From Bacteroidales bacterium (GTDB lineage Bacteria > Bacteroidota > Bacteroidia > Bacteroidales > VadinHA17), in contig DAOOUQ010000003.1 in the NCBI GenBank assembly GCA_035390825.1, forward strand, positions 105,268 through 169,267: a DNA stretch of 64,000 nucleotides, given 5' to 3'. Each line of letters opens with the position of its first letter. The stretch's first letter is position 1. This document shows positions 9,757-63,113 of the stretch, piece by piece. Position numbers and translations under genes: made by a program. The notes beneath the pieces were generated by a model. That model saw only the letters and a program-made list of their open reading frames with translations, searched no databases and was not told where the DNA came from.

Positions 9757-9825
9757 TCAATTCAATTGCCGGTGAATCCGGAAATTATTATATTCAGCCT
9801 CTCAAATACCTGAAAAAAGGGCTCC

Positions 9826-36745: not shown

Positions 36746-37858
36746 TTATTCAGGTTTATAAGGAACTCCTTCCTTCAGTGTCATTATACCGAAATCTCCA
36801 ATTCTGTTACCTTTGTCATCGAAACTTATCCGGCCTGTAACACCACTATAGATCATGCTCTTCACTGTTTTCTGAATAAGCTCCCTGTCGTTAACTCCCG
36901 ATTTCTTTATTGCTTCAATAAGCAAGCCAGTGGCATCATACGAAAATGAAGCCATCATACCCGGAAATACTCCATATGTGACGAAGTAAGCTTTTTTAAA
37001 ATCATTATTTTCCTTATTGTTCCAGTTGCCTGATGCCACACGGATTTTATTGTCAAAAACCCCAATTTCAGCTGGGGTTAATATGTTCTCATTGGCAGCA
37101 AGAAGAGAAGAAAAAATATTAATCTCCGGTTTCTTTTCAGATAATATTTCCGTAATTACTTTTGAAATTTCCGGAGTGCAGAACAGAACGATGCATTCAG
37201 TCTCTGATTTAGCTATTTTCTCGGCAATCATTTCAGCATCATTTCCCGATTCAACTGTGTAGTAGAATGAGGGATCATGTTTCCCTGCAGCTTTTATTTC
37301 TTTCAGAAATGTAGCTGAAGCCATATCTGAGTCATAGTCTTTAGCGGAAACGACAGTTATCTTATTGAAACTATGTTTATTGTATATTGAGTAAATAATG
37401 GATCGGGCTTGCTGCCGGTCGGTCGGCACACAATTAAAAAACCAAGGTACAAAAGCCTGGGAAAGAGTAGGGTCAGAAGACCAGGCTGAAACATAAGGTA
37501 CTATTGATTTTGTCGCAGCCTGTTCAACAAGGTGGGCGTTCCTTCCGTCGTGGCAGCCTGTCAGAGCCCAAACTTTTTCCTCAAAAATAAGGTCTACAGC
37601 TTGTTTTGACCCTGTTCCCCAGGGTCCTTCCATCGATCTGACGATCAGGCTGAATTTTTTCCCGTTGAAACCACCTTCAAGGTTGGCCTTGCGTATTGCC
37701 AGTTCTGCTCCCCTGACAGCAGCCTCTGATTCTTTGTCCTGTATCAGCAGGCCTATTTTTATCGTATCATCCTTCCGGTCACCGCCGGGGAATGGCAAAG
37801 GTATATTAAAACCGGTCAGGGCCAGAAAAATGCCGGCAAGGAGTATAGGATAATTCAT
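36746..37858 (-). CDS. Type-I periplasmic binding protein (LivK/Peripla_BP_6-like), orphan
   Basis: 370 aa with a signal peptide and a LivK-like N-terminus (IKIGLLIQDKESEAAVRGAELAIRKAN). No ABC permease or ATPase gene is nearby. Confidence 0.72.
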   Translation of the reverse strand: MNYPILLAGIFLALTGFNIPLPFPGGDRKDDTIKIGLLIQDKESEAAVRGAELAIRKANLEGGFNGKKFSLIVRSMEGPWGTGSKQAVDLIFEEKVWALTGCHDGRNAHLVEQAATKSIVPYVSAWSSDPTLSQAFVPWFFNCVPTDRQQARSIIYSIYNKHSFNKITVVSAKDYDSDMASATFLKEIKAAGKHDPSFYYTVESGNDAEMIAEKIAKSETECIVLFCTPEISKVITEILSEKKPEINIFSSLLAANENILTPAEIGVFDNKIRVASGNWNNKENNDFKKAYFVTYGVFPGMMASFSYDATGLLIEAIKKSGVNDRELIQKTVKSMIYSGVTGRISFDDKGNRIGDFGIMTLKEGVPYKPE

Positions 37859-37877: not shown

Positions 37878-38762
37878 TCATATCAGTGAAGGTTCAGGTT
37901 TTGCTAGTTTCCTGCCGACTGCCCGTGCAATCTTGTCAAGGTCGGTCATCAGGGCAGAAAACTCTTCAGGGTTGATTGACTGGTGCCCGTCGCAAAGTGC
38001 CTCTTCAGGGTTATAATGGACTTCCATTATGAGACCGTCGGCACCGGCTGCTATGGCAGCTTTTGCCATTGTCGGAACCATCCATCGGAGGCCTGTGCCG
38101 TGGCTCGGATCGACTATTACCGGAAGATGGCTTAAATGCTTAAGCATGGGAACCGCACTGAGATCAAGTGTATTACGTGTAGTTGTTTCAAAAGTACGTA
38201 TGCCTCTTTCGCAGAGAACCACCTGGTCGTTACCCTGGCTAAGTATATATTCAGCGGCAAGCAGGAATTCTTCAATAGTTGCCATCATGCCCCTTTTGAG
38301 CAGAACAGGTTTTTTCTGCATTCCCACTTCCTTGAGCAGCACGAAATTCTGCATGTTTCTTGATCCGACCTGGAGCATGTCGGCATATTCAGAAACGAAT
38401 TCTACATGCCGTGTATCCATAACCTCCGTAACGAAAGGCAGTCCTGTTTCGAGACTGATCTCCTTAAGTAATTTTATGCCTTCACTTCCAAGGCCCTGAA
38501 AATTATAGGGAGAGGAACGTGGCTTAAAAGCGCCTCCCCTTAATATAAGCCCTCCTGATATTTTAACTGCATATGCAGTTTCTCTCAGCTGTTCAGAGCT
38601 TTCAACAGCACATGGACCGGCAATGACAACAACCCCGTTAGGACCGATTTTGAGTCCGCCCACATTTACCTCAGAGGCTTCGGAATTTGATCTCCTGCGA
38701 ACCTTGGAAGGCACTGAACATCCCCCTGATATTGACGGATCATTATTTCTGTTTGATTCCAT
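37878..38762 (-). CDS. aroF: 3-deoxy-7-phosphoheptulonate (DAHP) synthase, class I-beta, with a ~45-aa N-terminal extension
   Basis: Motifs [34 protein letters not shown] and VDPSHG are diagnostic of the KDO8PS-like DAHP synthase family. Confidence 0.88.
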
Positions 38763-38778: not shown

Positions 38779-40092
38779 CTATTGATAAGCCACCCTGGGT
38801 TTCTTATAAATTACATTTTCCTTTTCCCACCGCGGGGCAGGAGAGAAGTGAAATTTTCCGTTACTTACCTTTGCCAGGTAAATAGGCCTGATATTATTCC
38901 ATGTACCGTCAAAAACAACTTTGCCTGTTACACCCTGATAACCCTGGAAGGTTTTAAGGTCTGTCAGGATATCACGTATGAGAGCTCTGTTCAGGCCTGC
39001 TTTCCTGATGGCTTCAATTATTATATTCATGCCATCGTAAGCATGTGCCGCAAATACATCAGGTTCCATACCAAATCTCTCTCTGAATCTTTTTCTGAAA
39101 GCTATAAGAGCCGGGTCATTGGAGTCAGGGTTATACTGACATGTAGTTATTAAGCCCTCAGCGAGATTCCCAGTCTCTTTAAGGAATTTCTCGTTTACCA
39201 TTCTATCAGATCCGTAAACCGGCTGATTCAGGCCCATAGCTCTCAGCTGTTGAAGAATAAGTGCTGATTCTCTTGCATTACCCCATATGAGAACAGCATC
39301 AGGGGATGTCTTCTTTACTCTTTCGATCTGGGCCTTAAAATCAGATTCTCCGTCGCTGAATCTTTCTTCTATAATAATGGGGAAACCTATTCTTGTAGCT
39401 GAGCGGTTGAAATGAAGAGTCCCGACTCTGCCATAACGGTTGTTGGCTCTGATTACTGCAACGCGTTTATGTTTGTCTTTATTGAAGATCTGGTCAACAA
39501 GCACGTAGCTGCTTTGCCTGTCGTCGGGGATTGTCCTTATCACCCATGGAATATTTGTTTCGGTGAATGTCGGATCGGGATCACCTGTGTTAACATTGGG
39601 GATTTCGAGTTTCAGGGTAGCTCTTATTGCAACATGAGAAACAATGTCATCGATTGATCCCAGCCATGCCCATACTCCCTCGTCATCCATTTTTACAACC
39701 TCATTGGCTGCTGCTCCCCAAAGCCCGACATCATTATGGATCATAAGTTTGAACGGCATACCCTTGTAGCCTCCCTTTTTATTGGCTTCCTCTATTGCCA
39801 AAGTAGCTCCGTGAAGCATCTGTTCGCCAAGGTCCTGAATTATAGAACCCTCAAGAGGTCCGAGGAACCCTATCCTTACTTCTGTCAGATTGGTTGGAGG
39901 CAGTTTTTCACGACCGGCACCGTAGAATTTCATGGGTTCCAGAAAATGATATTTATAAGCCTTCATATACCTGTCATATGCTACTAGTTCATCAGGTATA
40001 TTACCATAATTTGAAGGTAATTGCTGCCCTGACAATATTGAACATGTTGTTGTCAGGATCAGGAATGTCAGAATCCGGTAATGGGTTTTCAT
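38779..40092 (-). CDS. Type-I periplasmic binding protein (LivK/Peripla_BP_6-like), orphan, second copy
   Basis: 437 aa with a signal peptide and LivK-like blocks ([12 protein letters not shown]...[14 protein letters not shown]). Confidence 0.72.
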
Positions 40093-40102
40093 ATTTTTTT
40101 GT

Positions 40103-40678
40103 TTAGTTTATTTTACTAATGGCATAAGTTTCAATCTCCACCAGAAGAGTTTCCCAGCATAATCTTGCCTGAATCCCTGTACTGGCAGGCAGGGGATCAA
40201 GATTCATCCATCGGAAAAATGATGTGCGTATCTTATTGAATTCCTCGTAATCCCTTTCAATATCCCTTAGGTAATTGGTTGTCCTGATCACATCATGCCA
40301 TGTCATACCTTCGGCTGAAAGAAGATTTGTGATATTCCTGTAAGTCCTCCAGGTCTGAGCTTTGAAATCACCTATATGCTCTGCCTTCCCTTCTTCATTG
40401 ACACTAGCTGTACCTGAAATTAAAAGGATTTTATAACCTCCCAGTTCCAGACGAAGGGCTCTTGTAAATGATGATGGTTTTTTATAATCATAAGCTTCAT
40501 TTATTACCTGCGGTGCATGTACCGCGAATTTTTCAACAGGAGGTCTTTCTGTATGAACGGCTGGATAGTTGTAATCTTTTAACGTCAAATCTTCTTTGAG
40601 AATCCCCAGTTTAATCATTTCAGCTTTCTCACCATCCGTGAGTTTTGTCAGATCTATCAACAGTTGTTTGTTATCCAT
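40103..40678 (-). CDS. YjgF/RidA-fold protein with a chorismatase-like ISGTASV motif
   Basis: Core sequence KILLISGTASVNEEGKAEHIGDFKAQTWRTYRNITNLL. The track start at 40717 is TTG; the first ATG (MDNKQ...) is at 40678. Confidence 0.62.
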   Translation of the reverse strand: MDNKQLLIDLTKLTDGEKAEMIKLGILKEDLTLKDYNYPAVHTERPPVEKFAVHAPQVINEAYDYKKPSSFTRALRLELGGYKILLISGTASVNEEGKAEHIGDFKAQTWRTYRNITNLLSAEGMTWHDVIRTTNYLRDIERDYEEFNKIRTSFFRWMNLDPLPASTGIQARLCWETLLVEIETYAISKIN

Positions 40679-40713
40679 TTTAGTTATATGATTTTTCTTA
40701 TTAAACAATATTC

Positions 40714-41901
40714 TCAATGTATTCTTTCACCCCTTGCCACTCCTTTTGAAGTTGCCACCCACAGGTAATCATCGCTGGCATCTACTCCGATAATAAAATT
40801 GTGGGAAATTGATGGCGACAAAGGAATCTCTTTCTTTTCACTCCCGTTTGTTATAATAGCTTTGCCGTTCTCATCATTATCATTTTTCTTATATGTTACC
40901 CATGTCTTCCCATCGAAGCTGCTTAATCCGTTATCGCTGCAGACAAATACCACCGGACCTTCAGCCCTGAGAAAGTTTATGAAATTGCTTGCCAATCCGC
41001 TGTCATGGTCAAAATAGCCTTTCCAGTTTTTGCCGTCATAGCGGCTCATTCCGAAATATGTTGAAACCCATAAGATACTGTCAGAATACGATGTTGCTGT
41101 TGTTATGTCATGGACAACTCCATCATCAGGCTGAAGGTCAATCTCCATGAAGCCATCGGGGTCAACATAATCCCTGAAATGTTTGGTTTGGGTATTGTAT
41201 TCAATAACCCCTCCGCCCCAAGCTGCTATCCATACTTTCCCATCTCCCGCCGATAATGCATATGTCCATGGTTCATGCATTGGTGCGTTCATTTCGGTGA
41301 ATATCTCCCACTGTTTTGTCCGGGTGTCATAATGGCCGGCCCCTCCTCCTGTTGCAACCCATATATCCTTTCCATAGCAAAATACATTGTATACCAGATC
41401 GTTTGGCATACCGCTGTTAAACTGATTGAATGTCTCAAATTTCCCTGATGACCAGCGACTAAGGCCACCAAGTGTTCCAATCCATACATCACCTGTAAGC
41501 TGGTCGACATCAATTGACACGATACCATTATGCGGGAGGCCGTCTTGTGTGGTGTATGTCTTCCATTTCCCATTCTGATATACGGCCAGGCCATCATGTG
41601 TTCCGACGAGAACCCGGTCACCATCAATCCTCACCGCATATGCTTTATCTGAAGGAAGTCCATCTTTTGTGGTAAAATTCTTCCAGTTTCCATAGACAGG
41701 CATTTCACCGGCTTCTTTTATCACATTGGAGCTACTTCCAGGGTACTTGTCAGAATTGTTGTGATAATCTGTGCTCTCTTTGAACTTCGCAGGGTTTAAA
41801 GCAAAAGTCGACTTTTCATTTTTAATGAAAAGAAATATTACCACAAGAACTATTCCGGCAGTAATCAGAATTGCAGCAAAATATTTGACTAAGTTTTTCA
41901 T
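40714..41901 (-). CDS. Membrane-anchored two-component-regulator-propeller (Reg_prop) repeat protein without an output domain
   Basis: 395 aa with an N-terminal TM helix and repeated GLPSDKAYAV.../DGLPHNGIVSIDVD...VWIGTLGGLSRW units, as found in the sensor domains of hybrid two-component systems. Confidence 0.7.
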   Translation of the reverse strand: MKNLVKYFAAILITAGIVLVVIFLFIKNEKSTFALNPAKFKESTDYHNNSDKYPGSSSNVIKEAGEMPVYGNWKNFTTKDGLPSDKAYAVRIDGDRVLVGTHDGLAVYQNGKWKTYTTQDGLPHNGIVSIDVDQLTGDVWIGTLGGLSRWSSGKFETFNQFNSGMPNDLVYNVFCYGKDIWVATGGGAGHYDTRTKQWEIFTEMNAPMHEPWTYALSAGDGKVWIAAWGGGVIEYNTQTKHFRDYVDPDGFMEIDLQPDDGVVHDITTATSYSDSILWVSTYFGMSRYDGKNWKGYFDHDSGLASNFINFLRAEGPVVFVCSDNGLSSFDGKTWVTYKKNDNDENGKAIITNGSEKKEIPLSPSISHNFIIGVDASDDYLWVATSKGVARGERIH

Positions 41902-41922: not shown

Positions 41923-43968
41923 TTATTTTTTTCGATGAAGAAATGACGCCTGGTGAATTTTTGTTTCTTTTTTGTTTTCATATTCAGGATCTCTGAGAGA
42001 TTTGAGATATTCTACCAACTCGTTGAGCTGTATCTTTGTAAGGTCATTTAATGATCCATGTTCCTCTGTTTTACCATAGATGGTCCATATCTCTTCAAGG
42101 GTTGCCGCACGTCCATCATGAAGGTAGGGTGGCGAAGCAAAAATATTATTAAGATGAGGAGTATCGAAAAGTATGGAGTCGTCTGTTGCAGCAAGAGTTC
42201 CAACACCGGCAGGCTTCATGTTTGTATAATATGGTGCCGGGTGGCAAGTGTTGCACCTGTTTGTAACAGGGATCTCATTTCCTTTATTGTCGTGCGTACG
42301 TTCAAAAATCTCCTTCCCGCGTTTCTGGGCTTCTGTAAGTTCCCCGTCTGGATTATACATAAGATTGGGAGGGTTTGGAATTCCTGTCATTATGTATGCA
42401 GTAAGCGCATCAAGATCCTTATAGCTGAAAGCCTCGGTACGGGTGAGGACGGTTGAGAACCGCATACCGTCCTGTTTATACACCGACTGGTTTTTCCCGT
42501 TCCATTTATAGGGAGGGGTATCCCCGATATTCCTCAACGACTGGGTATTTGTCATGTTCCTGCCCATATCCTTTGATGCCATGTTGTATGTAAGTCCATC
42601 CTCATGTGCGTCAGGATGGCATGTATAGCATGAATACTGGGTCTGAAAGGTACCTCCGGCGTTATTCAGCAGCCTTCGGCCGTGGCGTGCGACTGTTATT
42701 CTACCTGATCCTCCGAGGTGGATGGTGCCTTCTGACTCCAATGTCTCAGTATTTATGACAGCTATCCTGTCTTCAAGGTGCTCGGCAACATAAAGGGTTT
42801 TTCCGTCGGGCGAGAGCGACATCCCTTTGGGGTTAGCCCCGGTGGATATCCTTTTTATTACGATTCTGCTGCTTATCCCCAGGTGGTTTGCATACATTTC
42901 AAGCTTGTCATCTGTAATACCGCTTATGAGTCTTCTCACCGCATCAAGATCGACAACAGTGATTTTATCGACTCCCGAATGAGAGACAAATGCCTTTTTC
43001 CCATCTGGCGATATTGCTATGTCGAAAGGATCAGCATAATACGTATTAGGTTCATCCAAAAGAAGCTGAATTGTTCTTCCTGAAGGTTTGTTCTCAACAA
43101 TTCCTATGCCTTCAGTCATCATCCAGCCTCTTTCAACCTGTACTGTCGGAACATTGTTCTTTGGCCTTATCAAAGGGATTATTGCCAGGTCTCCTGACGG
43201 AGTGAATTCTACATTCTCCATCATATAGGCCGATTTAATGTCTCTCCTTTCGGATATCCTCTGGTTAAGGTCGTTAATACCTGTAAGTTCACACCTTATT
43301 GTATCTCCGTAAGGAGCTGAAAGAGTTCTTCTGCTTGTAACGTAAAGTAATGATCCATCATGGCTTTTACCGATCCCTGTCGGATTATTTCCGGCGGTAA
43401 GACGTTTTATTTCCTCACCAGTGGAAAGATCAATCACTGAAATATCCGATGAAAAGGAATTCACCGAATACAGGAATTTTTCGTCGGAACTAAGTGCCAG
43501 CCCTGCGGGTCCGCCTCCGGTCTTTAAGGTGTCTGTAACTTCATAGTTTTTAAGATCTATAACAGAAACGTTGTCGGACCATTGATTGCTCACATAGGCT
43601 TTGTTCCCTGATTTATCTATTATTACTGAATGGGGATGGATGCCGACCGGAATTTCTTCGGTAACTTTTTTTCTGTCATTATCGATAACCAGTAGTGAAT
43701 TTCCGTCTTCTGCTACTGCAAAGATTGATTTTCCGTCTTTTGACACTGCAAGGTTTAAAGGGGAATAATACTTTGCATTTACAATTCTGGCTACAGGGCC
43801 TGATTTAATGATGTACAGGTGACAGGAGCTGCATTTCAGAGGGTGGTCGTCAGTGGCTGTGATATAATTGACATGTTCCCTCGCCCATTTGTGGTACCGG
43901 GGATAAAAGATTAATCCAAGGACAGCTATTATCCCTGCCGGTATGATTATTTTCAGATATCCTTTCAT
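41923..43968 (-). CDS. Membrane-anchored tri-heme protein: CxxCH + YVTN beta-propeller + di-heme cytochrome c peroxidase/MauG domain
   Basis: 681 aa with an N-terminal TM helix. Heme motifs are CSSCH, CYTCH and CNTCH. There are YVTN-type repeats (SKDGKSIFAVAEDGNSLLVID, DKSGNKAYVSNQWSDNVSVIDL). CCP/MauG hallmarks are QSLRNIGDTPPY and PPYLHDGRAATLEEIW. Confidence 0.75.
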   Translation of the reverse strand: MKGYLKIIIPAGIIAVLGLIFYPRYHKWAREHVNYITATDDHPLKCSSCHLYIIKSGPVARIVNAKYYSPLNLAVSKDGKSIFAVAEDGNSLLVIDNDRKKVTEEIPVGIHPHSVIIDKSGNKAYVSNQWSDNVSVIDLKNYEVTDTLKTGGGPAGLALSSDEKFLYSVNSFSSDISVIDLSTGEEIKRLTAGNNPTGIGKSHDGSLLYVTSRRTLSAPYGDTIRCELTGINDLNQRISERRDIKSAYMMENVEFTPSGDLAIIPLIRPKNNVPTVQVERGWMMTEGIGIVENKPSGRTIQLLLDEPNTYYADPFDIAISPDGKKAFVSHSGVDKITVVDLDAVRRLISGITDDKLEMYANHLGISSRIVIKRISTGANPKGMSLSPDGKTLYVAEHLEDRIAVINTETLESEGTIHLGGSGRITVARHGRRLLNNAGGTFQTQYSCYTCHPDAHEDGLTYNMASKDMGRNMTNTQSLRNIGDTPPYKWNGKNQSVYKQDGMRFSTVLTRTEAFSYKDLDALTAYIMTGIPNPPNLMYNPDGELTEAQKRGKEIFERTHDNKGNEIPVTNRCNTCHPAPYYTNMKPAGVGTLAATDDSILFDTPHLNNIFASPPYLHDGRAATLEEIWTIYGKTEEHGSLNDLTKIQLNELVEYLKSLRDPEYENKKETKIHQASFLHRKK

Positions 43969-43970
43969 AT

Positions 43971-45407
43971 CTATTCAAGTTCAACGATCTTTTCTTTAAT
44001 CTCAGTAATATGAACCGGTATTATGACCGGATCTTTCCTAATAGCGAATGATACTCTGTTTTCGGGTGCAAATTCAGGATCTTCGTGGCATCCGACACAT
44101 CCACGCCTTTCGTTGGGACGAAGCCACAACCATGAGCAGGCCGGGCCAACCGGGTTCCCTTTTTCGTCAAGGGCCCTGATCCTGAATGGCTTGTCGGCCA
44201 TTACCTTAAGATAAAAAGATCCGTCTTTTTCGACCTTTACCACCCCATATGTTGAGTCGACTCCAAGCACTTCAATTCTGTCGGCCTTAACCTTTGAAGT
44301 GTTACCATGGCTGAAAAGATGCTCCTGGAAGTTTACGTCCTGGCAAAGGATAAGACCCGTTTTGACCATAAGATCGACTTCGCTGGGAAGCTTTTTGGGC
44401 CGGTTGTATGCTCCGGCGACGGCAACATCAATTATGTTATACCCGGGATTTTTGAAGACCTCCCTGCCAACCGAACTTTCTGACACATTGAAGTCGTACA
44501 GCCCGAAAAGGTCAGATCCCTTCTTTCGGAATGAAACAAGGAAATCATTATCAGCAAGAGGCAGGGCATATAGAAAATCGCCGTCAGATCCTGTTGACAA
44601 CTCTTTTCTTGTGAAGAGCGGACGGCTGTATTCAATCGAAACCAGATTCCCTCCCGTAAGGCCGTTTTTACCTGATTCAACAAAGATTATCCTGCCATCA
44701 TCTGTTTCGCAGGCGCTGTTCAGAAAACCGGATTGACCGGAAATGTTTTTATAGAATACATCAGCCTTTGTTCCGTCGGGACGCATCACCATGAGAACGG
44801 GGTCTCCCTTCTCGGGGAATGTTTGCGTTACGATAGTTAAAATCCGGCCGTCTTTAAGTATTGTACTGGCAAAATGCGATTGCGGGCTGAATGTAATCTG
44901 CTTAAGATCAGATCCGTTTAAACTGCAGGTATATAAACAGTGGGAATTTCTGACTGTGTCATTTATCGTATGTTTGCTGAATGTAAATCTTCCTCCCGGG
45001 AGGTAAGAAGGATCTGTGCAGTCTTCCTTCGATGAAGTTATCTGCCTGTATTTTCCATTGCCCAGTTTCATCTCCCAGATCTGCCAGATATCGCCTTTTG
45101 AAAGCTGTCCGGCGAAGATCATTGATTTGCCGTCGTATGAGATATCCGGGAAACATGCGGAATAAAAATCCTTTGTGAGGATCCGTGCAGATCCGGGTTT
45201 GTTAAGAGTGAATTCGCTGATCCTTGCTCCGGGTAAATACCGCCAGGATACCCCACTTAAATAATCCGGCGACAAAGTAATACTTCCCGGAGCTTCAGTA
45301 AGGATCAGCTTTGTTTTATTTGAACTGCTGCCTGAGCATGAAGCAAGAATCAGGCATGGAAATGTCAAATATATTAATTTAAAAAGGATTTTTTCTTTCA
45401 TACACAT
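43971..45407 (-). CDS. PD40/TolB-like beta-propeller lipoprotein with a C-terminal HzsA-like CxxCH module
   Basis: 478 aa with a lipobox (LILASCSG) and PD40-like repeats (SYDGKSMIFAG, RPDGTKADVFY). The C-terminus is CSWLWLRPNERRGCVGCHEDPE. The stop lies 2 nt before the next start. Confidence 0.62.
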   Translation of the reverse strand: MCMKEKILFKLIYLTFPCLILASCSGSSSNKTKLILTEAPGSITLSPDYLSGVSWRYLPGARISEFTLNKPGSARILTKDFYSACFPDISYDGKSMIFAGQLSKGDIWQIWEMKLGNGKYRQITSSKEDCTDPSYLPGGRFTFSKHTINDTVRNSHCLYTCSLNGSDLKQITFSPQSHFASTILKDGRILTIVTQTFPEKGDPVLMVMRPDGTKADVFYKNISGQSGFLNSACETDDGRIIFVESGKNGLTGGNLVSIEYSRPLFTRKELSTGSDGDFLYALPLADNDFLVSFRKKGSDLFGLYDFNVSESSVGREVFKNPGYNIIDVAVAGAYNRPKKLPSEVDLMVKTGLILCQDVNFQEHLFSHGNTSKVKADRIEVLGVDSTYGVVKVEKDGSFYLKVMADKPFRIRALDEKGNPVGPACSWLWLRPNERRGCVGCHEDPEFAPENRVSFAIRKDPVIIPVHITEIKEKIVELE

Positions 45408-47432: not shown

Positions 47433-48803
47433 TCATGCGGGAGAAGGAAGTGTTACAGTCACCGTGGTTCCTTTACCCGGTTTGGATTTGATTGTTATTT
47501 CACCATTGTGATTTTTTATAATCTGTCTTACAAGTGAAAGCCCTATACCTGTTCCCTGGATCAGTCTTGTATTTGAACCACGCTGAAATGGTTCAAAGAT
47601 TTTCTGGAGTTCATCCTCCGGTATCCCGATACCTTTATCCTTAAATACAAGTTCCATATTTTTTCCATTCGGGCCGAATCTTATATCAACTGTGTGATCA
47701 GCAGAGTATTTGCATGCATTTTCCATAATATTAATTATTGCCACCTTCAGAAGGCTGTCGTCACCGGCAATCATCATCTGTGAGGAATCCGTAAGAGAAT
47801 CGTTGATGGTTATATTTATGTGGTATGAAGGATTGAATTTCTTCAAATCATCACTTGCCTGCCAAACGACCTCATCAATGCTTACCTTCTTGTTATATCC
47901 TGAAGGCCCTTCAGCACTTGTCCTGGCGATAAGCAGCAATCTGTTTGAAAGGTTAATCAGCGATTTAATATCCTCCAGAACAGAATTGAGTGCATTTTTA
48001 TATTCCTCCGTGGTCCGGTCCTGCATCATCAGCACCTCTATCTGCCCGTGAACAGATGTGAGTGGTGTTCTGAGTTCATGCGAAGCATTTGATATGAAAT
48101 TTTTCTGCATGGCAAAGGATATTTCAAGTCTTTCGAGCATCCTGTTAAAGGTTTTTGCAAGACGTCCTATTTCATCTGCCCCGTTGCCTTCAGGAACTCT
48201 GAGGTTAAGGCTTGAGATGGAAATTTCATCAACCTTATTGACGACGTCTGATATAGGTTTAAGTGCCCTTCCCGAATAAAACCATCCTGCGACATAAAAC
48301 AAGACAAGACTAAGGAACCACACTATGAGCAGAATGAGTCCAAGCTTTTTAAGGTGTAACAGACCGTCGACATCCTGAGCTGCAGCCACTACAACAAAAG
48401 GAGTGTAATTTACAGTATACATCGTCCCGAGAACTTCATAGGCCCCCTGTTTATATCTGACGTTGATCTGTGACCTGATACGGTAAAGCAGATCGCCGGA
48501 TATCAGAATGTCGCCTGCAGGATCGGAGGTGTAAACAATATCATCCCTGCTGTTGAGTATTATTATCTTTTTGCGTGACAGGTTCGCGGGATTGTCATTT
48601 TCAATCATCCTTGCGAGGTTCTCATCAGGCTTGTAAGGGTTTAGAATCAGCCTGGCTGTGCTTCTCGACTGGCTTTTCAGGCGGTTGTAGAAATCCTCTT
48701 TCCTGAAATTTGAAGAGAAGTAATATATTGCCACCGAGGAGATAAGCATTATCAGGCCACCGAGGAGTATGAACTGAAGTGTCAGTCTGGTTCGTATCTG
48801 CAT
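47433..48803 (-). CDS. Sensor histidine kinase (two TM segments, HAMP, HisKA, HATPase_c)
   Basis: H-box SHELRTPLTS, N/G boxes (NIMENACKYS, GTGIGLSLV) and two N-terminal hydrophobic segments flanking a roughly 130-aa periplasmic loop. Confidence 0.9.
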   Translation of the reverse strand: MQIRTRLTLQFILLGGLIMLISSVAIYYFSSNFRKEDFYNRLKSQSRSTARLILNPYKPDENLARMIENDNPANLSRKKIIILNSRDDIVYTSDPAGDILISGDLLYRIRSQINVRYKQGAYEVLGTMYTVNYTPFVVVAAAQDVDGLLHLKKLGLILLIVWFLSLVLFYVAGWFYSGRALKPISDVVNKVDEISISSLNLRVPEGNGADEIGRLAKTFNRMLERLEISFAMQKNFISNASHELRTPLTSVHGQIEVLMMQDRTTEEYKNALNSVLEDIKSLINLSNRLLLIARTSAEGPSGYNKKVSIDEVVWQASDDLKKFNPSYHINITINDSLTDSSQMMIAGDDSLLKVAIINIMENACKYSADHTVDIRFGPNGKNMELVFKDKGIGIPEDELQKIFEPFQRGSNTRLIQGTGIGLSLVRQIIKNHNGEITIKSKPGKGTTVTVTLPSPA

Positions 48804-48923: not shown

Positions 48924-49598
48924 TCAGTCTCCAAATATATATCCAAATCCTACTTTTGTCCTGATCAGCTTTTTATCAAATCCCTTGTCAATTTTTTTCC
49001 GCAGGAAGTTGACATAAACATCCACCACGTTTGTACTGAAATCAAAGCTTACATCCCAAACCTTTTCAGCGATGTCGTTTCTCGACAGTACCCTTCCGGG
49101 GTTCCTCATGAAATACTCGAGAAGAGAGAACTCCTTGGCAGTCAGGTTTATTACTGAGCCTCCCCTGCGTGCGGCTTTTTTATCGAGATCGAGTTCAAGG
49201 TCGCCGTAAGCAAGTCTTTTCAAAGTGTTATTCGAATGATCGGAGGTTTTCAGCAGGACCTTAACCCTTGCAAGCAGTTCCCTGAACTCAAAAGGTTTAA
49301 CAAGGTAATCATTGGCGCCTGCATCAAAACCTGCAAGCTTGTCGTCGGTTGTGCCCAGTGCAGTCAGCATTAGCACGGGGATGCCCGGATAAAGAGACTT
49401 GAACTTTTTGCAAAGTTCGAGACCGTTTGTACCTGGAATAATTATATCAAGTATAAAGAGATTGTATTTGTACTGTCGGGCTAGTTTGTCGGCAGAAATG
49501 CCATCGTAGGCTAAATCTGCCTCAAAGTGGCTTTCCTCAAGCCCTTTCTTGATAAAGGAGGCCACTTTCGGTTCATCTTCTACAATAAGGATTTTCAT
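48924..49598 (-). CDS. OmpR/PhoB-family response regulator (receiver + winged-helix DNA-binding domain)
   Basis: 224 aa with receiver motifs MKILIVEDE and LFILDIIIPG, and a Trans_reg_C tail (LTAKEFSLLEYFMRNPGRVLSRNDIAEKVW...IRTKVGFGY). Confidence 0.92.
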   Translation of the reverse strand: MKILIVEDEPKVASFIKKGLEESHFEADLAYDGISADKLARQYKYNLFILDIIIPGTNGLELCKKFKSLYPGIPVLMLTALGTTDDKLAGFDAGANDYLVKPFEFRELLARVKVLLKTSDHSNNTLKRLAYGDLELDLDKKAARRGGSVINLTAKEFSLLEYFMRNPGRVLSRNDIAEKVWDVSFDFSTNVVDVYVNFLRKKIDKGFDKKLIRTKVGFGYIFGD

Positions 49599-49853: not shown

Positions 49854-52800
49854 ATGCAAATTACTACAAAACTACGGCGTCTTACGCTGTTTTTGTTCAG
49901 TATGGTCATTTCCTCAGGCATAATTTTAGCACAGGAAAAGACCGTAACCGGGAAGGTCACCGCCGAAGGCGAGGGAGCAATCCCGGGTGTAAACGTTACA
50001 GTTCAGGGTACAACCATCGGTGCAATGACAGGTATGGACGGAACATATTCACTGAGGGTGCCGGGGCCGAACGCGGTTCTGGTCTTCTCTTCGGTAGGAT
50101 ATGTAACACAGGCCATAACCGTTGGTTCCCAAACCGTTATCAATGTCAGCCTGGTATCTGACGTTCAGGCACTCCAGGAAGTTGTCGTAACCGGTTATAC
50201 CCAGCAGAGAAGAAGGGACCTTACAGGTGCCATTGCAACAGTTGAACCTGCAAAACTGACCCAGGTTCCGACTCCAAACGTGAGTAATGCACTTCAGGGC
50301 CGTACTGCCGGTGTTACTGTTGTAGGCGACGGCCGGCCGGGAGAAACCTCAAAGGTCAGGATCAGGGGATTCAGCTCCTTCCAGAACAACGACCCTCTTT
50401 ATGTTGTTGACGGTGTGCCCACACAGGATATTTCCTCCCTGAACCCTGCAGACGTTGCTTCTGTATCCGTACTAAAGGATGCCGGTGCAGCTTCTGTTTA
50501 CGGATCAAGGGCATCGAACGGTGTTATAATCGTCACCACCAAAAAAGGCGGCACAGGAGCAAAAGTTACCTATAACATGTATTATGGAACTCAGGATCCG
50601 GGTAAAGGCCCCACCAACCTTCTGAATGCAAAAGAATATGCTGATCTGCAGTGGCTTGTTTATAAAAACGACGGCACCACTGAGGTTCATCCGATTTATG
50701 GCCCCTCAACAGCAGCAAGCCCCACGTTTCCCGAATGGGCAGCAGATACCGACTGGTACGATGCAATAACACATTTTGCACCAATTCAGAATCACGACCT
50801 TTCATTTTCAGCAGGAAACGAAAATTCGAAGTTTTTTGCCGGTCTTGGTGTAAACATGCAGGATGGGATTGTTATTTATACAGATGCCAAGAAGTTTACC
50901 GGGAGATTCAACTCTGAATTTACATTCCTTAACGGGAGAATCAAGGTAGGGGAGAACCTTTCTCTTGCATACCGCACTGGGCACGGTGTTTCCAACCTGA
51001 ACGAAGGAAGCCCGATCCAGGTGGCCTGTTATAGGGCCCAGCCGATTGTTCCGGTTGTGATGACAGTTGCCGTTCCTAACGGGGCCACTCATGCCTTTGT
51101 TCCCGGCGACTGGGGTGGAACTGGTATTGCTCCACGTCTTGGACAGGCCGGAAACGTAGTGGCCAACCAGACCCGGGGCAAGGATAACACAAACTGGAAC
51201 ATCCACCTTATTGGAAGCGCATTCATTGATATCAAATTGCTCCAGGGCCTGAACTTCAAATCGACTCTTGGCGGTACATTCGATAACGGAACATGGAACA
51301 GCTACTCATACAAGACATATGAAAATGCCGAGAATAACTCATCCAACTCATTCCAGGAAGAATCTTATTACGGGAATGACTGGGTATGGACGAACCAGCT
51401 GACTTTTGACAAAACCTTCGGCGACCATAAAATCCTGGCTGTTGCCGGATATGAGGCTGTTAAATATGGCATTGGCCGCGGTATCGGCGGAAGCAGGGCA
51501 TCATACTTCTCGGATGATGTTCTCTATCGAACCCTCAGCAACGGATCAAACATACTAAGTGCCTATGGCTGGCTCAATACACCGACCACCCTTGTATCAC
51601 AGTTCATAAGGACCGACTATTCGCTGATGGATAAATACATGATTAGCGCAACTGTACGTCGCGACGGATCTTCAAGGTTCGGTGCCGGCAACCGCTACGG
51701 GGTTTTCCCTTCCGCCTCTGTTGGCTGGAGGATCAAGAGCGAAAACTTCCTTGCCGATGTCACATGGCTTTCCGATCTCAAATTGAGGGCCTCCTGGGGT
51801 ACAATGGGTAACCAGCTTGCTGTATCTCCCATGAACCAGTTCTTTAACTATGGCGGAGATCCCGGATTATCATTCTATGACATCAACGGAACATTTACTT
51901 CCTCAGTACAGGGATTTGCTCCGACACGTATCGGTAATCCTGATGCAAAATGGGAAACCAACATTACAACAGATATTGGTTTTGAAGCTTCATTCCTTAA
52001 CAATAAGATAGGATTGAAATTCGACTGGTATTCAAAGAAAACAAAGGATCTCCTTTTTAATCCCGAAGTGCCTGGCACTGTAGGTGCTGCAGATGTACCC
52101 TATGTAAACGTTGCTTCAATGTCGAATACAGGTGTTGATATCGAAGTTTCGTACAGGAACCAGTGGGGCGATCTGGGATTCGACGGGAGCATTGTCGCAA
52201 CCACTTATAAGAACAATATTGATAAAATTGCCGAAGGGATCACCTTCTTTGATCCTTATAATGACGCTAATACCGCAAACAGGATCAATGGCGTTCCCGT
52301 ACGCAACATGGTTGGGCACCCGATGTCAGCATTCTTTGGCTATCATGTTCTTGGCTTGTTCCAGAGCCAGGCTGAGGTTGATGCTGCCCCCGAACAGTCG
52401 GGCGCTGAAGCAGGTTTCTTCCGCTTCGACGATACAAACGGTGACGGTAGTATAACTCCTGATGACAGGACATTCATTGGCAATCCCAACCCCAAATTCA
52501 CATACGGTGTTAACCTTGCCTTTACCTACAAAAACTTCGACCTGACAGCATTCCTTTACGGATCACAGGGTAACGATATCTTTAACTGGAACACATGGTG
52601 GGTCGATTTCTGGCCATCGTTCCAGGGACAGAAAAGCAAAAATGCCCTCTACAACAGCTGGACTCCGCAAAGAACAAATGCAACCACCCCGAAAGCATCC
52701 AACAAGTCTAATTTCTCGACAAATAACGAAATCAACGACTATTACATTGAAGATGGATCGTTCCTCCGTCTGAAAAACCTTCAGATCGGATATACAATTC

Positions 52801-52991
52801 CTGAAAGTGTTACGAGCAAAATTAATATCGGATCAATCAGGGTCTATTTGCAGGGAGTTAACCTGTTTACAATTACAAAATACTCAGGGCTTGATCCCGA
52901 ACTTGGCGGCTGGGACACAACCTTCGGTATGGATGCCGGAAACTATCCTCTGGTTAAACAGTACCTTGTAGGTTTAAATGTGAATTTTTAA
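49854..52991 (+). CDS. SusC/RagA-family TonB-linked outer-membrane protein
   Basis: 1045 aa with a CarboxypepD_reg N-domain (VTGKVTAEGEGAIPGVNVTVQGT), a plug (VVVTGYTQQRRRD) and the C-terminus VGLNVNF. Confidence 0.9.
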   Translation: MQITTKLRRLTLFLFSMVISSGIILAQEKTVTGKVTAEGEGAIPGVNVTVQGTTIGAMTGMDGTYSLRVPGPNAVLVFSSVGYVTQAITVGSQTVINVSLVSDVQALQEVVVTGYTQQRRRDLTGAIATVEPAKLTQVPTPNVSNALQGRTAGVTVVGDGRPGETSKVRIRGFSSFQNNDPLYVVDGVPTQDISSLNPADVASVSVLKDAGAASVYGSRASNGVIIVTTKKGGTGAKVTYNMYYGTQDPGKGPTNLLNAKEYADLQWLVYKNDGTTEVHPIYGPSTAASPTFPEWAADTDWYDAITHFAPIQNHDLSFSAGNENSKFFAGLGVNMQDGIVIYTDAKKFTGRFNSEFTFLNGRIKVGENLSLAYRTGHGVSNLNEGSPIQVACYRAQPIVPVVMTVAVPNGATHAFVPGDWGGTGIAPRLGQAGNVVANQTRGKDNTNWNIHLIGSAFIDIKLLQGLNFKSTLGGTFDNGTWNSYSYKTYENAENNSSNSFQEESYYGNDWVWTNQLTFDKTFGDHKILAVAGYEAVKYGIGRGIGGSRASYFSDDVLYRTLSNGSNILSAYGWLNTPTTLVSQFIRTDYSLMDKYMISATVRRDGSSRFGAGNRYGVFPSASVGWRIKSENFLADVTWLSDLKLRASWGTMGNQLAVSPMNQFFNYGGDPGLSFYDINGTFTSSVQGFAPTRIGNPDAKWETNITTDIGFEASFLNNKIGLKFDWYSKKTKDLLFNPEVPGTVGAADVPYVNVASMSNTGVDIEVSYRNQWGDLGFDGSIVATTYKNNIDKIAEGITFFDPYNDANTANRINGVPVRNMVGHPMSAFFGYHVLGLFQSQAEVDAAPEQSGAEAGFFRFDDTNGDGSITPDDRTFIGNPNPKFTYGVNLAFTYKNFDLTAFLYGSQGNDIFNWNTWWVDFWPSFQGQKSKNALYNSWTPQRTNATTPKASNKSNFSTNNEINDYYIEDGSFLRLKNLQIGYTIPESVTSKINIGSIRVYLQGVNLFTITKYSGLDPELGGWDTTFGMDAGNYPLVKQYLVGLNVNF

Positions 52992-53010
52992 CAGTATAAT
53001 ATGAAATAAT

Positions 53011-54894
53011 ATGAAAAATAGATCTTTAATATTTTTCTTAATTCTTGCCGGGATCCTATTGATTGGTTCCTGTAAGGAAGACTTTCTGACAGTAAAACCA
53101 GCAGGTTCACTCGACGAAAACATACTTGCCGATGATCCGGGTATAGAAGCGATGCTGATTGGCTGTTATGCATGCCTTGATGGTCAGGGCGGACCCGGGG
53201 GCTGGGGTTCAGCAACCTCTAACTGGGTTTATGGATCCATTAGAGGAATGGAAGCCAACAAAGGTTCAGATGCCGGTGACCAGCCTTTTATCAACCCGAT
53301 ACAGACATTCAGTGAAACGTCAACAAATGACTATCTGAACGTGAAATGGAGAACTGTATATGATGCTATAACAAGATGCAATAAAACAATCATTATCATT
53401 AACAAAGCTCTGGAAAAAGGTACGATATCACAGTCTGATGCAGATCTTTGGACACAGCAGGCACGGGTCCTGAGGGGATGGTATCATTTTGATGCCTGGA
53501 GAATGTGGGGCGGCAAGATCCCGTATGTTGATGAAAATACTGATCCCTATACAGTTACAAATACAGCTGATGTCAGGGCACAGATAATTGCCGATCTTAC
53601 TGAAGGCACAAAGCTCCCTTTAAACATGGGAGCCATAGGAAGGTTCAACAAAACTGTAAGCCAGATCCTTCTCGCAAAAGCTGAGATGGAAATGAACAAG
53701 GATTACGCTAAGGCCCTCGTGCTGCTGAACGATGCAAAAAACACGGGTAAAAAGCCCAATGGAGCTGATATAGGCCTTGCTCCAACTTATGGTGAGATAT
53801 TTGATATTGCCAACCGCAACGGTATCGAATGCATCTATACTGTACAGTATTCGGTAAACGACAACTCGGGCGGAACCAACGGCGGAAACGGTGAGGTCCT
53901 TAACTTCCCGTATAACGGCAATGCCCCGGGTACCTGCTGCGGATTCTTCAACCCGACACAGGATTTCGTAAATTCATTCAGAACCAATGCTCAGGGGTTG
54001 CCTTATCTTGATAATTATAATAGTTATCCAGTGTTAAATGATCAGGGATGTCCCACAGAAAACAATTGGGACGCCGGCACTACCTATTCAAAGAAGGATG
54101 TTGTTATCGTCACCGATCCATCAGAAGCACCTAATCGTCAGGTAAAAGCATACGTATCCTTGACTGAAGGGAATATAGGACATCCGCCACTTACAAGTCC
54201 GACTTACTGGGCTGTTCAGTGGCAGGAAGACCCCGATCCATTGGATCCTCGTCTCGACTGGTCAGTGGGAAGAAGGGGAATCCCTTACTGGGATTGGGGA
54301 ATTCATACAGGTATGAACTGGATACGAGACCAGACCTATTCTGGTCCTTACAGTCCGAAAAAACAGGTTTACAAAAAATCACAGACAGGCACCTATACCG
54401 AAGTAGGAAGCTGGACATCAGGCTATACGGCAAATGGATACCGTATGATACGTTATGCTGACCTCCTTCTGTTGCTTGCTGAATGTGAAATTGAAGCCGG
54501 AAGCCTCGAAAACGCAAGGGCCCTGATAAACCAGGTTCGAACCAGGGCTTCAAATCCTGACGGATTCGTAAAGGATGGTAATGTCCCTGCTGCAAACTAT
54601 GTTGTAAGTCCGTATCCTTTAACAGGAGCACCTTTCGATACAAAAGAAAATGCCCGCAAGGCTCTCTACATGGAAAGGAAACTTGAACTCGGTCAGGAGG
54701 GTCATAGATGGTTCGACCTTAACAGATGGGGAATAACAGTGGCTGAACTTTCAAAGGTCCTTGCCTATGAGAAGAGCATGCCATGGGGTGATAAATTGTA
54801 CCAGGGTGCTGCATTGGGCCCGGAAGATGTTTCCTTCCCGATCCCGCAGCGCCAGATCGACCTGAGTGAAGGTAATATCGTGCAGAACCGATAG
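53011..54894 (+). CDS. SusD/RagB-family nutrient-binding lipoprotein
   Basis: 627 aa with a lipobox (LLIGSCKE) and a SusD C-terminal block (MERKLELGQEGHRWFDLNRWG). Confidence 0.9.
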   Translation: MKNRSLIFFLILAGILLIGSCKEDFLTVKPAGSLDENILADDPGIEAMLIGCYACLDGQGGPGGWGSATSNWVYGSIRGMEANKGSDAGDQPFINPIQTFSETSTNDYLNVKWRTVYDAITRCNKTIIIINKALEKGTISQSDADLWTQQARVLRGWYHFDAWRMWGGKIPYVDENTDPYTVTNTADVRAQIIADLTEGTKLPLNMGAIGRFNKTVSQILLAKAEMEMNKDYAKALVLLNDAKNTGKKPNGADIGLAPTYGEIFDIANRNGIECIYTVQYSVNDNSGGTNGGNGEVLNFPYNGNAPGTCCGFFNPTQDFVNSFRTNAQGLPYLDNYNSYPVLNDQGCPTENNWDAGTTYSKKDVVIVTDPSEAPNRQVKAYVSLTEGNIGHPPLTSPTYWAVQWQEDPDPLDPRLDWSVGRRGIPYWDWGIHTGMNWIRDQTYSGPYSPKKQVYKKSQTGTYTEVGSWTSGYTANGYRMIRYADLLLLLAECEIEAGSLENARALINQVRTRASNPDGFVKDGNVPAANYVVSPYPLTGAPFDTKENARKALYMERKLELGQEGHRWFDLNRWGITVAELSKVLAYEKSMPWGDKLYQGAALGPEDVSFPIPQRQIDLSEGNIVQNR

Positions 54895-58340: not shown

Positions 58341-59039
58341 ATGAAAATGAAGATCAAAAGAGCAAGCATGAAAATGATAAAAGCCGTGATATTAACAATA
58401 TTGCTATTGTCACAGCGACCGGCATTTTTACATTCACAGACTGCGGTGAAGGATGTTGACGGCAATACCTATTTGTCAATAGTTATCGGCAAACAGACCT
58501 GGATGGCAGAAAACCTTAAAACTACCCGTTTGAACGACGGCACCCCGATCAAGCTCGTCAGCGATGAAAAAACATGGTCGTCTGCGAACTACCCAGCATA
58601 TTGCTTTTATGAAAATGAACCAAAGAACAAAGAAGTCTACGGGATATTATATAACTGGTTCACTGTTGACACAAAAAAACTATGCCCGAAAGGCTGGCAC
58701 GTTCCAAGCGATAATGAATGGAAAGAGCTGACGGATTTCCTGGGCGATATTATCACCGCCGGCGACAAGTTAAAGGAAGCGGGCACAACACACTGGAAGA
58801 ACTATTTCAGCCAGGCCACAAATGAGTTTGATTTTACCGCACTTCCGGCAGGGATGAGGTATAATACAGGCGTTTTTCCTGATTTCGGAAACGACTATGC
58901 TGTGTGGTGGTCCTCAACAAGGGCTAATATCACACTGGCCTGGAATCGCGGATTGCACAACAGCACTAGCAGAATATTCCGGGGGTGCGATGAAATCCAA
59001 AGCGGATTCTCTGTCCGTTGTATTATGGATAAGAAGTAA
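58341..59039 (+). CDS. Fibrobacter succinogenes major paralogous (FISUMP, TIGR02145-type) domain protein, exported
   Basis: 232 aa with DVDGNTYLSIVIGKQTWMAENLKTT, GWHVPSDNEWKEL, AVWWSST and FSVRCI, the hallmark blocks of the FISUMP domain. Confidence 0.8.
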   Translation: MKMKIKRASMKMIKAVILTILLLSQRPAFLHSQTAVKDVDGNTYLSIVIGKQTWMAENLKTTRLNDGTPIKLVSDEKTWSSANYPAYCFYENEPKNKEVYGILYNWFTVDTKKLCPKGWHVPSDNEWKELTDFLGDIITAGDKLKEAGTTHWKNYFSQATNEFDFTALPAGMRYNTGVFPDFGNDYAVWWSSTRANITLAWNRGLHNSTSRIFRGCDEIQSGFSVRCIMDKK

Positions 59040-62865: not shown

Positions 62866-63113
62866 GACTTTTTAGATGAAAACCAAATATATGATAAAAT
62901 TTCAATCATCCCTTTTTATTTCTGTATCTCCTGCTCTTTAAGAAGGATTTCAGACCTTTAAAGGATTTTGGCGCAAATATGTGCACACGGTGTAGCCTTC
63001 AGAGGGCTTGGGGGGCAATCCGGGCTAAATATGAAAGGTGAGAAAACAATATTCATTACAATAACCCGAAAAAATCCTAACTTTATCGCTCACAAAACCA
63101 ACTGGAAAGTCGA

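Follow-up and report, generated by a model that had tools for sequence, protein, structure and literature searches.

Hydrazine synthase (HZS), the key enzyme of anammox, has been crystallised as a single complex of alpha, beta and gamma subunits (PMC12607021). It was long thought to be without relatives, so that the origin of anammox had no explanation. Metagenome-assembled genomes (MAGs) of Phycisphaerae UBA1845 were later reported by Dalcin Martins et al. (2023; PMC10732223) to carry an hzsA-like gene immediately 5' of a fused hzsBC-like gene, and these authors proposed that HZS-like enzymes form a wider family acting on other substrates. From searches of GTDB and RefSeq, Hagglund et al. (2025; PMC12758564) described four clades (I-IV) of co-localised HZS homologues, in which key residues are not conserved and for which no function was proposed; the main text of that study stresses Planctomycetota and Desulfobacterota. 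In clade III, an FG-GAP/CRTAC1 gene lies 5' of alpha, alpha lies 5' of beta-gamma and two ABC binding-protein genes lie on the 3' side, with an alpha protein devoid of the alphaII part and the C-terminal end and a beta-gamma protein bearing one extra haem motif (PMC12758564). PMC9325076 holds nothing on non-anammox HZS homologues. The present analysis concerns two adjacent genes, encoding proteins here termed P1 (478 amino acids, aa) and P2 (681 aa), in a 64-kb window (the whole stretch of DNA analysed, from contig DAOOUQ010000003.1) of a Bacteroidales genome.

Homology of the gene pair to hydrazine synthase

The pair most probably specifies a complex homologous to HZS, a redox enzyme that does not form hydrazine, in a non-anammox member of the Bacteroidales. 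Homologues of all three HZS subunits are encoded, because P1 corresponds to alpha, and P2 to beta plus gamma, by both sequence and fold. A first-pass annotation made from the DNA letters had read P1 as an HzsA-like PD40 lipoprotein outside anammox and P2 as a tri-haem fusion of a YVTN propeller to a MauG or cytochrome c peroxidase (CCP) domain. Its coordinates, gene lengths and 2-nt spacing agree with the list of open reading frames (ORFs) and with a direct reading of the junction, and every motif it quoted was found again (CVGCH at residues 437-441 of P1; CSSCH, CYTCH, CNTCH and PPYLHDGRAATLEEIW in P2).

For P1, the HZS_alpha profile PF18582 was matched at 64.8 bits (cut-off 26.6), the best NCBIfam match was NF052339, hydrazine synthase alpha, at 118 bits (equivalog cut-off 800, not reached), and the best match in the Protein Data Bank (PDB) was chain A of the Kuenenia enzyme (5C2V_A, E 4.7e-33). 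The AlphaFold2 (AF2) model of P1 (pLDDT 78) led to the same chain in Foldseek (E 2e-20, TM 0.69), with TolB next (E 1e-9, TM 0.45). The propeller is modelled as all-beta at high pLDDT, and residues 56-140 and 167-328 align with residues 51-135 and 217-385 of 5C2V_A. The HzsA-like nature of P1 in a Bacteroidales, non-anammox genome was thus borne out by PF18582, NF052339 and 5C2V_A. The PD40 label holds in part: the Pfam PD40 profile gave no match to P1 at E<=0.01 and the TolB profile scored 23 bits against a cut-off of 343, whereas NCBIfam and the fold do make the propeller TolB/PD40-like. P1 contains ...SWLWLRPNERRGCVGCHEDPE..., and its sole CxxCH (residues 437-441 of 478) aligns with the CSGCH of 5C2V_A and with that of HzsA from an anammox reference contig, L081, whose frames were stitched by hand with approximate joins. 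Conservation was counted over 54 alpha orthologues, 76 beta-gamma orthologues and 49 family representatives; exactly one CxxCH is present in 54/54 alpha orthologues. In public gene calls the identical protein begins with the second in-frame ATG and so has 476 aa (MKEKILF...) against the 478-aa ORF (MCMKEK...), and the interpretation is unaffected.

The two halves of P2 return the other two subunits. Residues 69-407 match 5C2V_B over the full beta chain in the PDB sequence search (E 1e-46), and the modelled propeller, which is the confident part of the AF2 model, superposes on this chain with a TM of 0.89 and an rmsd of 2.9 Å over 349/352 residues. The NCBIfam beta profile NF052340 covers residues 63-407, nearly its whole length, at 206 bits (cut-off 560, not reached), TIGR02276 (YVTN) was matched in four stretches at 117.6 bits (cut-off 27.85), and the Pfam models found on the propeller are of the YNCE/lactonase type. 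Residues 426-658 match 5C2V_C at E 1.5e-17 to 5e-19, whereas CCPs and MbnH reach only E 3e-5 to 1e-3; PF03150 (CCP_MauG) scores 33 bits (cut-off 25.6) and covers residues 570-637 only. The gamma profile NF052341 remained at 77 bits (cut-off 625), and the best NCBIfam match of P2 was the beta-gamma fusion model NF052342 at 236 bits (cut-off 1250, not reached). The AF2 run on P2 drew on a shallow multiple sequence alignment (70-88% identity) with a pLDDT of about 25-30 in the haem domain, from which no ligand geometry was taken. The three haem motifs, the YVTN propeller and the di-haem domain of CCP/MauG fold therefore stand as first annotated; the description of a generic propeller::MauG fusion does not, the halves being homologues of HZS-beta and HZS-gamma. 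Both P1 and P2 are exported, judging from the lipobox of P1 (54/54) and the N-terminal anchor of P2.

P1 is the upstream and P2 the downstream partner on the minus strand, and their junction reads GAA CTT GAA TAG-at-ATG AAA GGA, with a gap from stop to ATG of exactly 2 nt. The linkage was followed in a scan of one genome per species that found 122 relatives, from which 80 loci were kept and mapped with tblastn using the window proteins; all 80 are Bacteroidota MAGs labelled Bacteroidales, Prolixibacteraceae, Rikenellaceae or Mariniphaga. Alpha was found directly upstream of beta-gamma in 72/72 testable loci, contig ends and one frameshifted copy being allowed for, so that the two families co-occur far beyond chance. 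The spacing between the alpha stop and the beta-gamma start is -4 to +2 nt in 54/72 loci, with an identity of 58-89% for P2 across related genomes and a median of about 47% for the alpha orthologues. The pairing is obligate, translationally coupled and set inside a conserved operon.

Haem sites, proposed mechanism and competing explanations

Four conserved c-haem sites are predicted per alpha/beta-gamma unit, the sole site of P1 adding to three CxxCH motifs in 76/76 beta-gamma orthologues. The residues that define HZS were taken from PMC12758564 and PMC12607021. Ser590/Tyr591 of HZS alpha, the unusual proximal haem ligand, falls in gap columns in 54/54 alpha orthologues, and no Tyr follows the CxxCH anywhere in P1. 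The Zn site of HZS consists of alpha His587 and Cys303, the latter being missing in Scalinduaceae too (PMC12758564); in the alpha orthologues this Cys column is occupied by P/S/T/N/A/V, never Cys, and by Ile in P1. The C-terminal bis-His haem-alphaII domain is absent from P1, which ends 37 residues past its only CxxCH; unlike P1, HzsA runs more than 200 residues past the haem alphaI motif and carries a second CxxCH.

In the gamma subunit of HZS, His144 replaces the Trp of CCP and MauG, and Cys165 provides a third covalent (thioether) bond to haem gammaI (PMC12758564). A Trp midway between the haems is typical of bacterial CCP (bCCP) and MauG (PMC12758564, PMC6405878), and it is Trp489 that occupies the His144 position in P2. 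At the Cys165 column, pairwise phmmer put a gap in P2, and the multiple alignment with 47 representatives puts Asp500, which was adopted; Cys is kept there in 24/49 family representatives. Other three-haem fusion clusters (P0125, P0126, P0129, P0130 and others) show Cys ("QCG") at this position against "QDG" in the window lineage. A third haem thioether may thus occur in some non-anammox homologues of three-haem architecture, and not in the window lineage, as the alignment suggests. The 10-residue anammox insertion in gamma is missing from P2, and gamma Asp168 aligns with Phe504. In the beta loop region (residues 272-298), E279 (E70/D6) and E292 (E69/D5/Q2) align with two HzsB glutamates, one or other of which may correspond to the Mg ligand; the Mg-binding Glu of the HZS beta loop (245-260) is not conserved in the homologues (PMC12758564).

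The distal ligand of the C-terminal haem of P2, for which the first-pass annotation had weighed a MauG-like Tyr against a CCP-like Met or His, is likely to be His637 by alignment, giving a bis-His haem that is neither MauG-like nor CCP-like. Six-coordinate ligation is Tyr-His in MauG, MbnH and BthA and Met-His at the high-potential haem of bCCP (PMC6405878), whilst the gammaII haem of HZS is bis-His (PMC12607021). Tyr631 of P2 aligns with the Met ligand of Nitrosomonas CCP (1IQC, "ETMGR") and with the Tyr of MbnH (6E1C), and P2 has no Met there. Position 631 is Tyr in 61 and Phe in 15 of the 76 orthologues, and Y13/F13/H13 among family representatives, so that Tyr631 is not an essential axial ligand. 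His637 is found in 76/76 orthologues and in 46/49 representatives including anammox, and the H637-G638 pair aligns with "MHG" of HzsC.

A mechanism can be proposed from these features. P1 and P2 would, from homology, assemble in the manner of HZS. Electrons might enter P2 through the membrane-proximal N-terminal haem (C46xxCH50, the CSSCH motif at residues 46-50), for which His32 and His42 are candidate sixth ligands, and/or through the bis-His haem (H576/H637), and could then cross the invariant Trp489 to the open-site haem at C447xxCH451; there a small oxidant, for instance peroxide, NO or some other N-oxide, would be reduced. The conventionally His-ligated haem of P1 could provide a further site of reaction or binding, accessible along the beta-propeller, and the product would not be hydrazine. 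The neighbouring genes for CRTAC1-like, sensor-propeller and solute-binding proteins likely encode partners with an accessory, substrate-delivering or sensing role; a part played by the binding proteins, together with the sensor-type propeller and the kinase/regulator pair, in delivering or sensing the substrate is speculation. Any particular substrate for the complex is a doubtful proposition, and the simplest guesses would be peroxide, NO or some other N-oxide.

Several points weigh against the assignment of a non-hydrazine-forming HZS-type complex. Homology is the sole basis for complex formation, the tunnel and the electron path, the model of the P2 haem domain is unreliable at pLDDT of about 25-30, and the data point to no particular substrate. 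Exported proteins are encoded in the operon side by side with cytoplasmic ones (DAHP synthase and a RidA-like protein), a misfit to a simple respiratory or detoxifying module. Part of the synteny could also reflect genome relatedness, all loci being of Bacteroidota with 58-89% P2 identity.

A more specific proposal is that of an HZS-type two-site tunnel enzyme that carries out another, undescribed nitrogen transformation close to ancestral HZS chemistry. Examples would be the stepwise conversion NO->NH2OH->NH4+, or the joining of a hydroxylamine-like intermediate, formed at a haem, to an amine or amino acid supplied by the two Leu/Ile/Val-type binding proteins. This proposal is considered unlikely, albeit less so than the explanations that follow.

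Close to the chemistry first suggested is an enzyme of the MauG/MbnH type, in which the di-haem part of P2 would reach the bis-Fe(IV) state with H2O2 or O2 and oxidise a propeller-held partner, either P1 or the CRTAC1-like protein. The invariant inter-haem Trp489, shared with MauG and bCCP, the alignment of Tyr631 with the Tyr of MbnH at the Met-ligand position of CCP, and the candidate substrate proteins encoded alongside would all fit. This explanation is nevertheless improbable, because Tyr631 is unconserved, being replaced by Phe or His as counted above, and His637 is invariant and common to HZS-gamma with its bis-His gammaII haem; a Tyr-to-His change abolishes the bis-Fe(IV) state in MauG (Y294H) and in BthA (Y463H) (PMC6405878). 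The family scores point the same way, at 20 bits against a cut-off of 444 for MauG (TIGR03791) and 30 against 363 for MbnH (TIGR04039), neither of which was reached, and the E-value for HZS-gamma is about 14 orders of magnitude better than for any MauG or CCP structure. The absence of a CCP-type Met and the low CCP score described next likewise make MauG-type chemistry unlikely.

The notion that P2 is a plain periplasmic peroxidase, a propeller-fused bCCP that detoxifies H2O2 with P1 as an accessory or electron donor devoid of a second catalytic site, is held to be about as improbable as MauG-type oxidation. It draws on the Pfam CCP_MauG match above its cut-off, on the conservation of Trp489, unlike HZS-gamma, and on the absence of the HZS-specific gamma Cys165 and 10-residue insertion. 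However, no Met is present at the ligand position of the high-potential haem, the peroxidase family model NF040606 (CytoC_perox) scored 19.8 bits against a cut-off of 150, and the whole set of alpha, beta and gamma parts together with the alpha haem (54/54) is strictly kept, which argues for a two-site enzyme; the need of such a peroxidase for a conserved operon of about 10 genes is not evident either.

Independence of P1 and P2, with their adjacency a matter of inherited synteny, has in its favour that all 80 loci come from one phylum in which gene order could be inherited. It is judged highly improbable, given that the adjacency of alpha followed by beta-gamma recurs in four other phyla (Planctomycetota, Desulfobacterota, Acidobacteriota and Verrucomicrobiota) according to the literature including PMC12758564, that the -4 to +2 nt spacing is kept despite the divergence of alpha, and that the homologues are subunits of one crystallised complex. 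Last and least, a genuine HZS with cryptic anammox-type N-N bond formation in Bacteroidales can be dismissed as barely conceivable: although all three subunit types are encoded in tight linkage, four haems per unit are shared with HZS and E279/E292 align with glutamates of the HzsB loop region, five defining residue or domain tests were negative. In alpha, Tyr591/Ser590 are deleted, Cys303 is absent and the alphaII domain is missing; in gamma, Cys165 is replaced by Asp and His144 by Trp, with Asp168 opposite Phe. Hydrazine synthesis is very unlikely given the absence of the Tyr/Zn site and of Cys165, and given that no gene for a hydrazine- or hydroxylamine-oxidising partner (HDH/HAO) or for any other multihaem protein lies nearby in any of the 80 loci, whilst the NCBIfam scores fall under all equivalog cut-offs and the literature likewise concludes against it for such homologues (PMC12758564).

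The operon and the wider family

The pair sits in a same-strand block of about 10 genes that is conserved across the 80 loci (Table 1), and no intergenic terminator-like sites were found on the coding (minus) strand of the operon. This multigene setting was left out of the first-pass annotation, as was the prior publication of the arrangement (PMC10732223; PMC12758564). The 395-aa propeller encoded just downstream of P2 resembles the sensor domain of hybrid two-component systems, and the histidine kinase and response regulator upstream are possible regulators of the operon. The scanned ORFs of the 64-kb window include no ABC permease or ATPase gene, and the two orphan Peripla_BP_6 proteins may act as sensors or substrate carriers, not as transporter parts. 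Apart from P2, no ORFs with two or more CxxCH motifs (HAO/HDH or other multihaem proteins) were found in the 64-kb window or within 10 kb on either side of the 80 loci. The DAHP synthase and the RidA-like protein have no signal peptides and are presumably cytoplasmic, embedded as they are among genes for exported proteins; the latter has an N-terminal extension of about 90 aa and weak matches to the chorismatases FkbO/Hyg5.

Table 1. Coordinates (window positions) of the gene pair, its conserved sites and the neighbouring genes
Feature	Position	Strand	Evidence or conservation
P1, HZS-alpha-like lipoprotein, 478 aa	43971..45407	minus	ORF list, PF18582, NF052339, 5C2V_A
P1 lipobox Cys24 (ILASC)	45336..45338	minus	Cys in 54/54 orthologues
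P1 beta-propeller, about residues 56-328	44424..45242	minus	Aligned to HzsA N-terminal propeller
P1 HZS_alpha middle domain, residues 385-442	44082..44255	minus	Pfam; 388-442 align with 5C2V_A 507-561
P1 haem motif C437-V-G-C-H441, haem alphaI equivalent	44085..44099	minus	54/54 orthologues
P2, membrane-anchored tri-haem HZS-beta::HZS-gamma fusion homologue, 681 aa	41923..43968	minus	ORF list, NF052342/NF052340/NF052341, 5C2V_B, 5C2V_C
P2 hydrophobic anchor, about residues 3-23	43900..43962	minus	Kyte-Doolittle maximum 2.16 at residue 3; long N-terminal helix in AF2 model
P2 extra haem segment, invariant H32, T37, D41, H42, C46-x-x-C49-H50	43819..43875	minus	75-76 of 76 orthologues
P2 seven-bladed YVTN propeller, HZS-beta equivalent, residues 63-407	42748..43782	minus	5C2V_B 14-349 aligned
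P2 di-haem CCP/MauG-fold domain, HZS-gamma equivalent, residues 426-658	41995..42693	minus	5C2V_C, PF03150
P2 C447-Y-T-C-H451, catalytic haem gammaI equivalent	42616..42630	minus	76/76; aligns with gamma Cys102/Cys105/His106
P2 C572-N-T-C-H576, electron-transfer haem gammaII equivalent	42241..42255	minus	76/76 orthologues
P2 Trp489 at HZS gamma His144 position	42502..42504	minus	W in 76/76 orthologues, 38/49 family representatives; anammox H
P2 Asp500 aligned with HZS gamma Cys165	42469..42471	minus	D in 76/76; family column C24/V13/D5; anammox C
P2 Y631...H637-G638	42058..42078	minus	Alignments to 1IQC, 6E1C, 5C2V_C
FG-GAP/UnbV_ASPIC (CRTAC1-like) lipoprotein, 553 aa, 23 nt upstream of P1	45431..47092	minus	Pfam; CRTAC1 9ETN E 4e-21; 71/80 loci, about -3.1 kb
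Membrane-anchored beta-propeller, 395 aa, 21 nt downstream of P2	40714..41901	minus	Reg_prop; 4A2L E 2e-20; 75/80 loci
RidA/L-PSP-family protein, cytoplasmic, 4-nt overlap with 395-aa propeller gene	40103..40717	minus	Profiles; 45/80 loci
Peripla_BP_6 no. 1 (Leu/Ile/Val-binding-like)	38779..40092	minus	Pfam; 4GNR E 4e-27; 72/80 loci
DAHP synthase family I, cytoplasmic	37878..38762	minus	273 bits; 63/80 loci
Peripla_BP_6 no. 2	36746..37858	minus	Pfam; 72/80 loci
TPR + FG-GAP/UnbV protein, 1198 aa	33150..36746	minus	Profile; 46/80 loci
FG-GAP/UnbV protein, 564 aa	31466..33160	minus	Profile
Histidine kinase and OmpR-type response regulator, upstream of operon	47433..48803 and 48924..49598	minus	About 32/80 loci, same position

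The window has a G+C content of about 44% and carries SusC/SusD genes, as expected for Bacteroidota. Five FG-GAP/UnbV_ASPIC paralogues lie within about 33 kb around the HZS-like pair, the three minus-strand genes of Table 1 being joined by two of about 1100 aa each at 54980-58285(+) and 59066-62359(+), with a Fib_succ_major-domain protein (58341-59039) encoded between the two. These two FG-GAP genes of about 1100 aa follow a divergently transcribed SusC/SusD pair (49854-54894) in a unit resembling a polysaccharide utilisation locus. Since the kinase/regulator pair sits between the divergent units, the HZS-like operon and the SusC/SusD unit may form one regulon. An ORF at 63081-63998(+), incomplete at the 3' end of the window, contains CANCH (about residue 187) followed by a PD40/TolB-like propeller repeat, and so specifies a second protein with haem and propeller beside the FG-GAP genes; its candidacy as a second alpha paralogue was rejected on a BLASTP E-value of 0.1 against P1. 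At 5846-9756(+), two genes for Kup-type K+ transporters, of 654 and 649 aa, lie in tandem and share a 4-nt overlap.

Both families are large, with more than 3270 beta-gamma-type and 1579 alpha-type public proteins at the least among the scored candidates, originating from sediment, fen, lake and digester metagenomes and nearly always annotated as "hypothetical", "YVTN family" or "lactonase family"; the public entry identical to P2 is a [quoted passage not shown]. When representatives at 50% identity were searched exhaustively, 1088 proteins reached E<=1e-30. The best 150 of these 1088 included 47 clusters of full-length fusions, of which 13 have three haem motifs, as in the window, and the others have 2, 4, 6 or 10. 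Among the variants with 8 or 4 extra N-terminal haem motifs are the beta-gamma fusions P0131 (961 aa), P0137 (902 aa) and P0138 (805 aa); P0132 (851 aa) is a beta-gamma fusion with 4 extra C-terminal haem motifs, and P0230 (1300 aa) and P0242 (1440 aa) are extended at the N terminus by 700-870 aa, a stretch that contains two haem motifs. In a rough neighbour-joining tree, built from BLOSUM distances without support values and of descriptive use only, the window sequence groups with other three-haem fusions, away from anammox.

HZS-like families offer the best available view of the role of the ancestral enzyme, and the Bacteroidales version, which is abundant, mis-annotated and part of an operon of strong conservation, is relevant to how anammox arose. 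Working out its function could reveal new periplasmic haem chemistry, and the practical value at present lies in a corrected annotation with defined residues and partners.

Comparison with described systems

Among characterised enzymes, HzsABC of Kuenenia stuttgartiensis (5C2V, EC 1.7.2.7) has the same three modules, namely an alpha propeller with a haem middle domain, a beta propeller and a di-haem gamma, and it is the best PDB match in sequence and fold for each module of P1 and P2. Four c-haems per unit are common to both, and the alphaI, gammaI and gammaII motifs are kept along with the probable bis-His ligand of gammaII. However, identity amounts to only 22-29% in structure-based alignments and the scores are far under the equivalog cut-offs. 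P1 is without Tyr591, Cys303 and the whole haem-alphaII domain, the gamma part of P2 has Trp for His144 and Asp for Cys165 and no 10-residue insertion, and P2 differs further in the fusion of beta to gamma, the extra N-terminal haem and the membrane anchor. The gene order is alpha then beta-gamma here against beta/gamma then alpha in HZS loci, and there is no anammoxosome context, HDH or HAO at the Bacteroidales locus. The reference contig L081 (ENA ERZ25039603 contig_49356) has a genuine anammox hzsB-hzsC-hzsA cluster at 6678-11182, followed by two HAO-type genes beside hzsA; frameshifts split this cluster into small called genes, which is probably why the HzsA query returned only fragments.

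HzsBC of Scalindua (NF052342) unites beta and gamma in one polypeptide of about 690 aa, as does P2, but keeps the HZS catalytic residues and is without an N-terminal haem or anchor of the P2 type. With bCCP, MauG and MbnH (the PF03150 superfamily), P2 shares the di-haem fold, the inter-haem Trp and the PxLHDG motif after the second haem; it differs from them in having neither a Met nor a conserved Tyr ligand, in its fusion to an HZS-beta-type propeller and in its pairing with an HZS-alpha-type haem protein. The UBA1845 pair has similar bit scores against Kuenenia (89-163) and likewise no hdh gene. Those MAGs, which belong to another phylum and whose authors considered that they might represent new anammox bacteria, have genes of the HAO/NXR type close by or elsewhere; none such occur at the Bacteroidales locus.

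The closest agreement is with clade III of Hagglund et al., every described feature of which is present in the window, including the Ser590/Tyr591 gap and the Trp at gamma 144. The supplementary BLAST tables of that study (PMC12758564) contain entries for Bacteroidales/Prolixibacteraceae, with 473-479 aa for alpha and 681 aa for beta-gamma, among them contigs of the present locus set, and the window pair matches the type published as "clade III" by its described features. As the type of system and its layout were already published, the pair adds to a known kind. What is added here, relative to PMC12758564, is the probable His (not Tyr or Met) ligand at gammaII, with Tyr variable and His invariant, the Asp at the Cys165 position in the Bacteroidota lineage, the candidate ligands His32 and His42, the near-universal sensor-type propeller gene and the counts of coupling (72/72) between alpha and beta-gamma.

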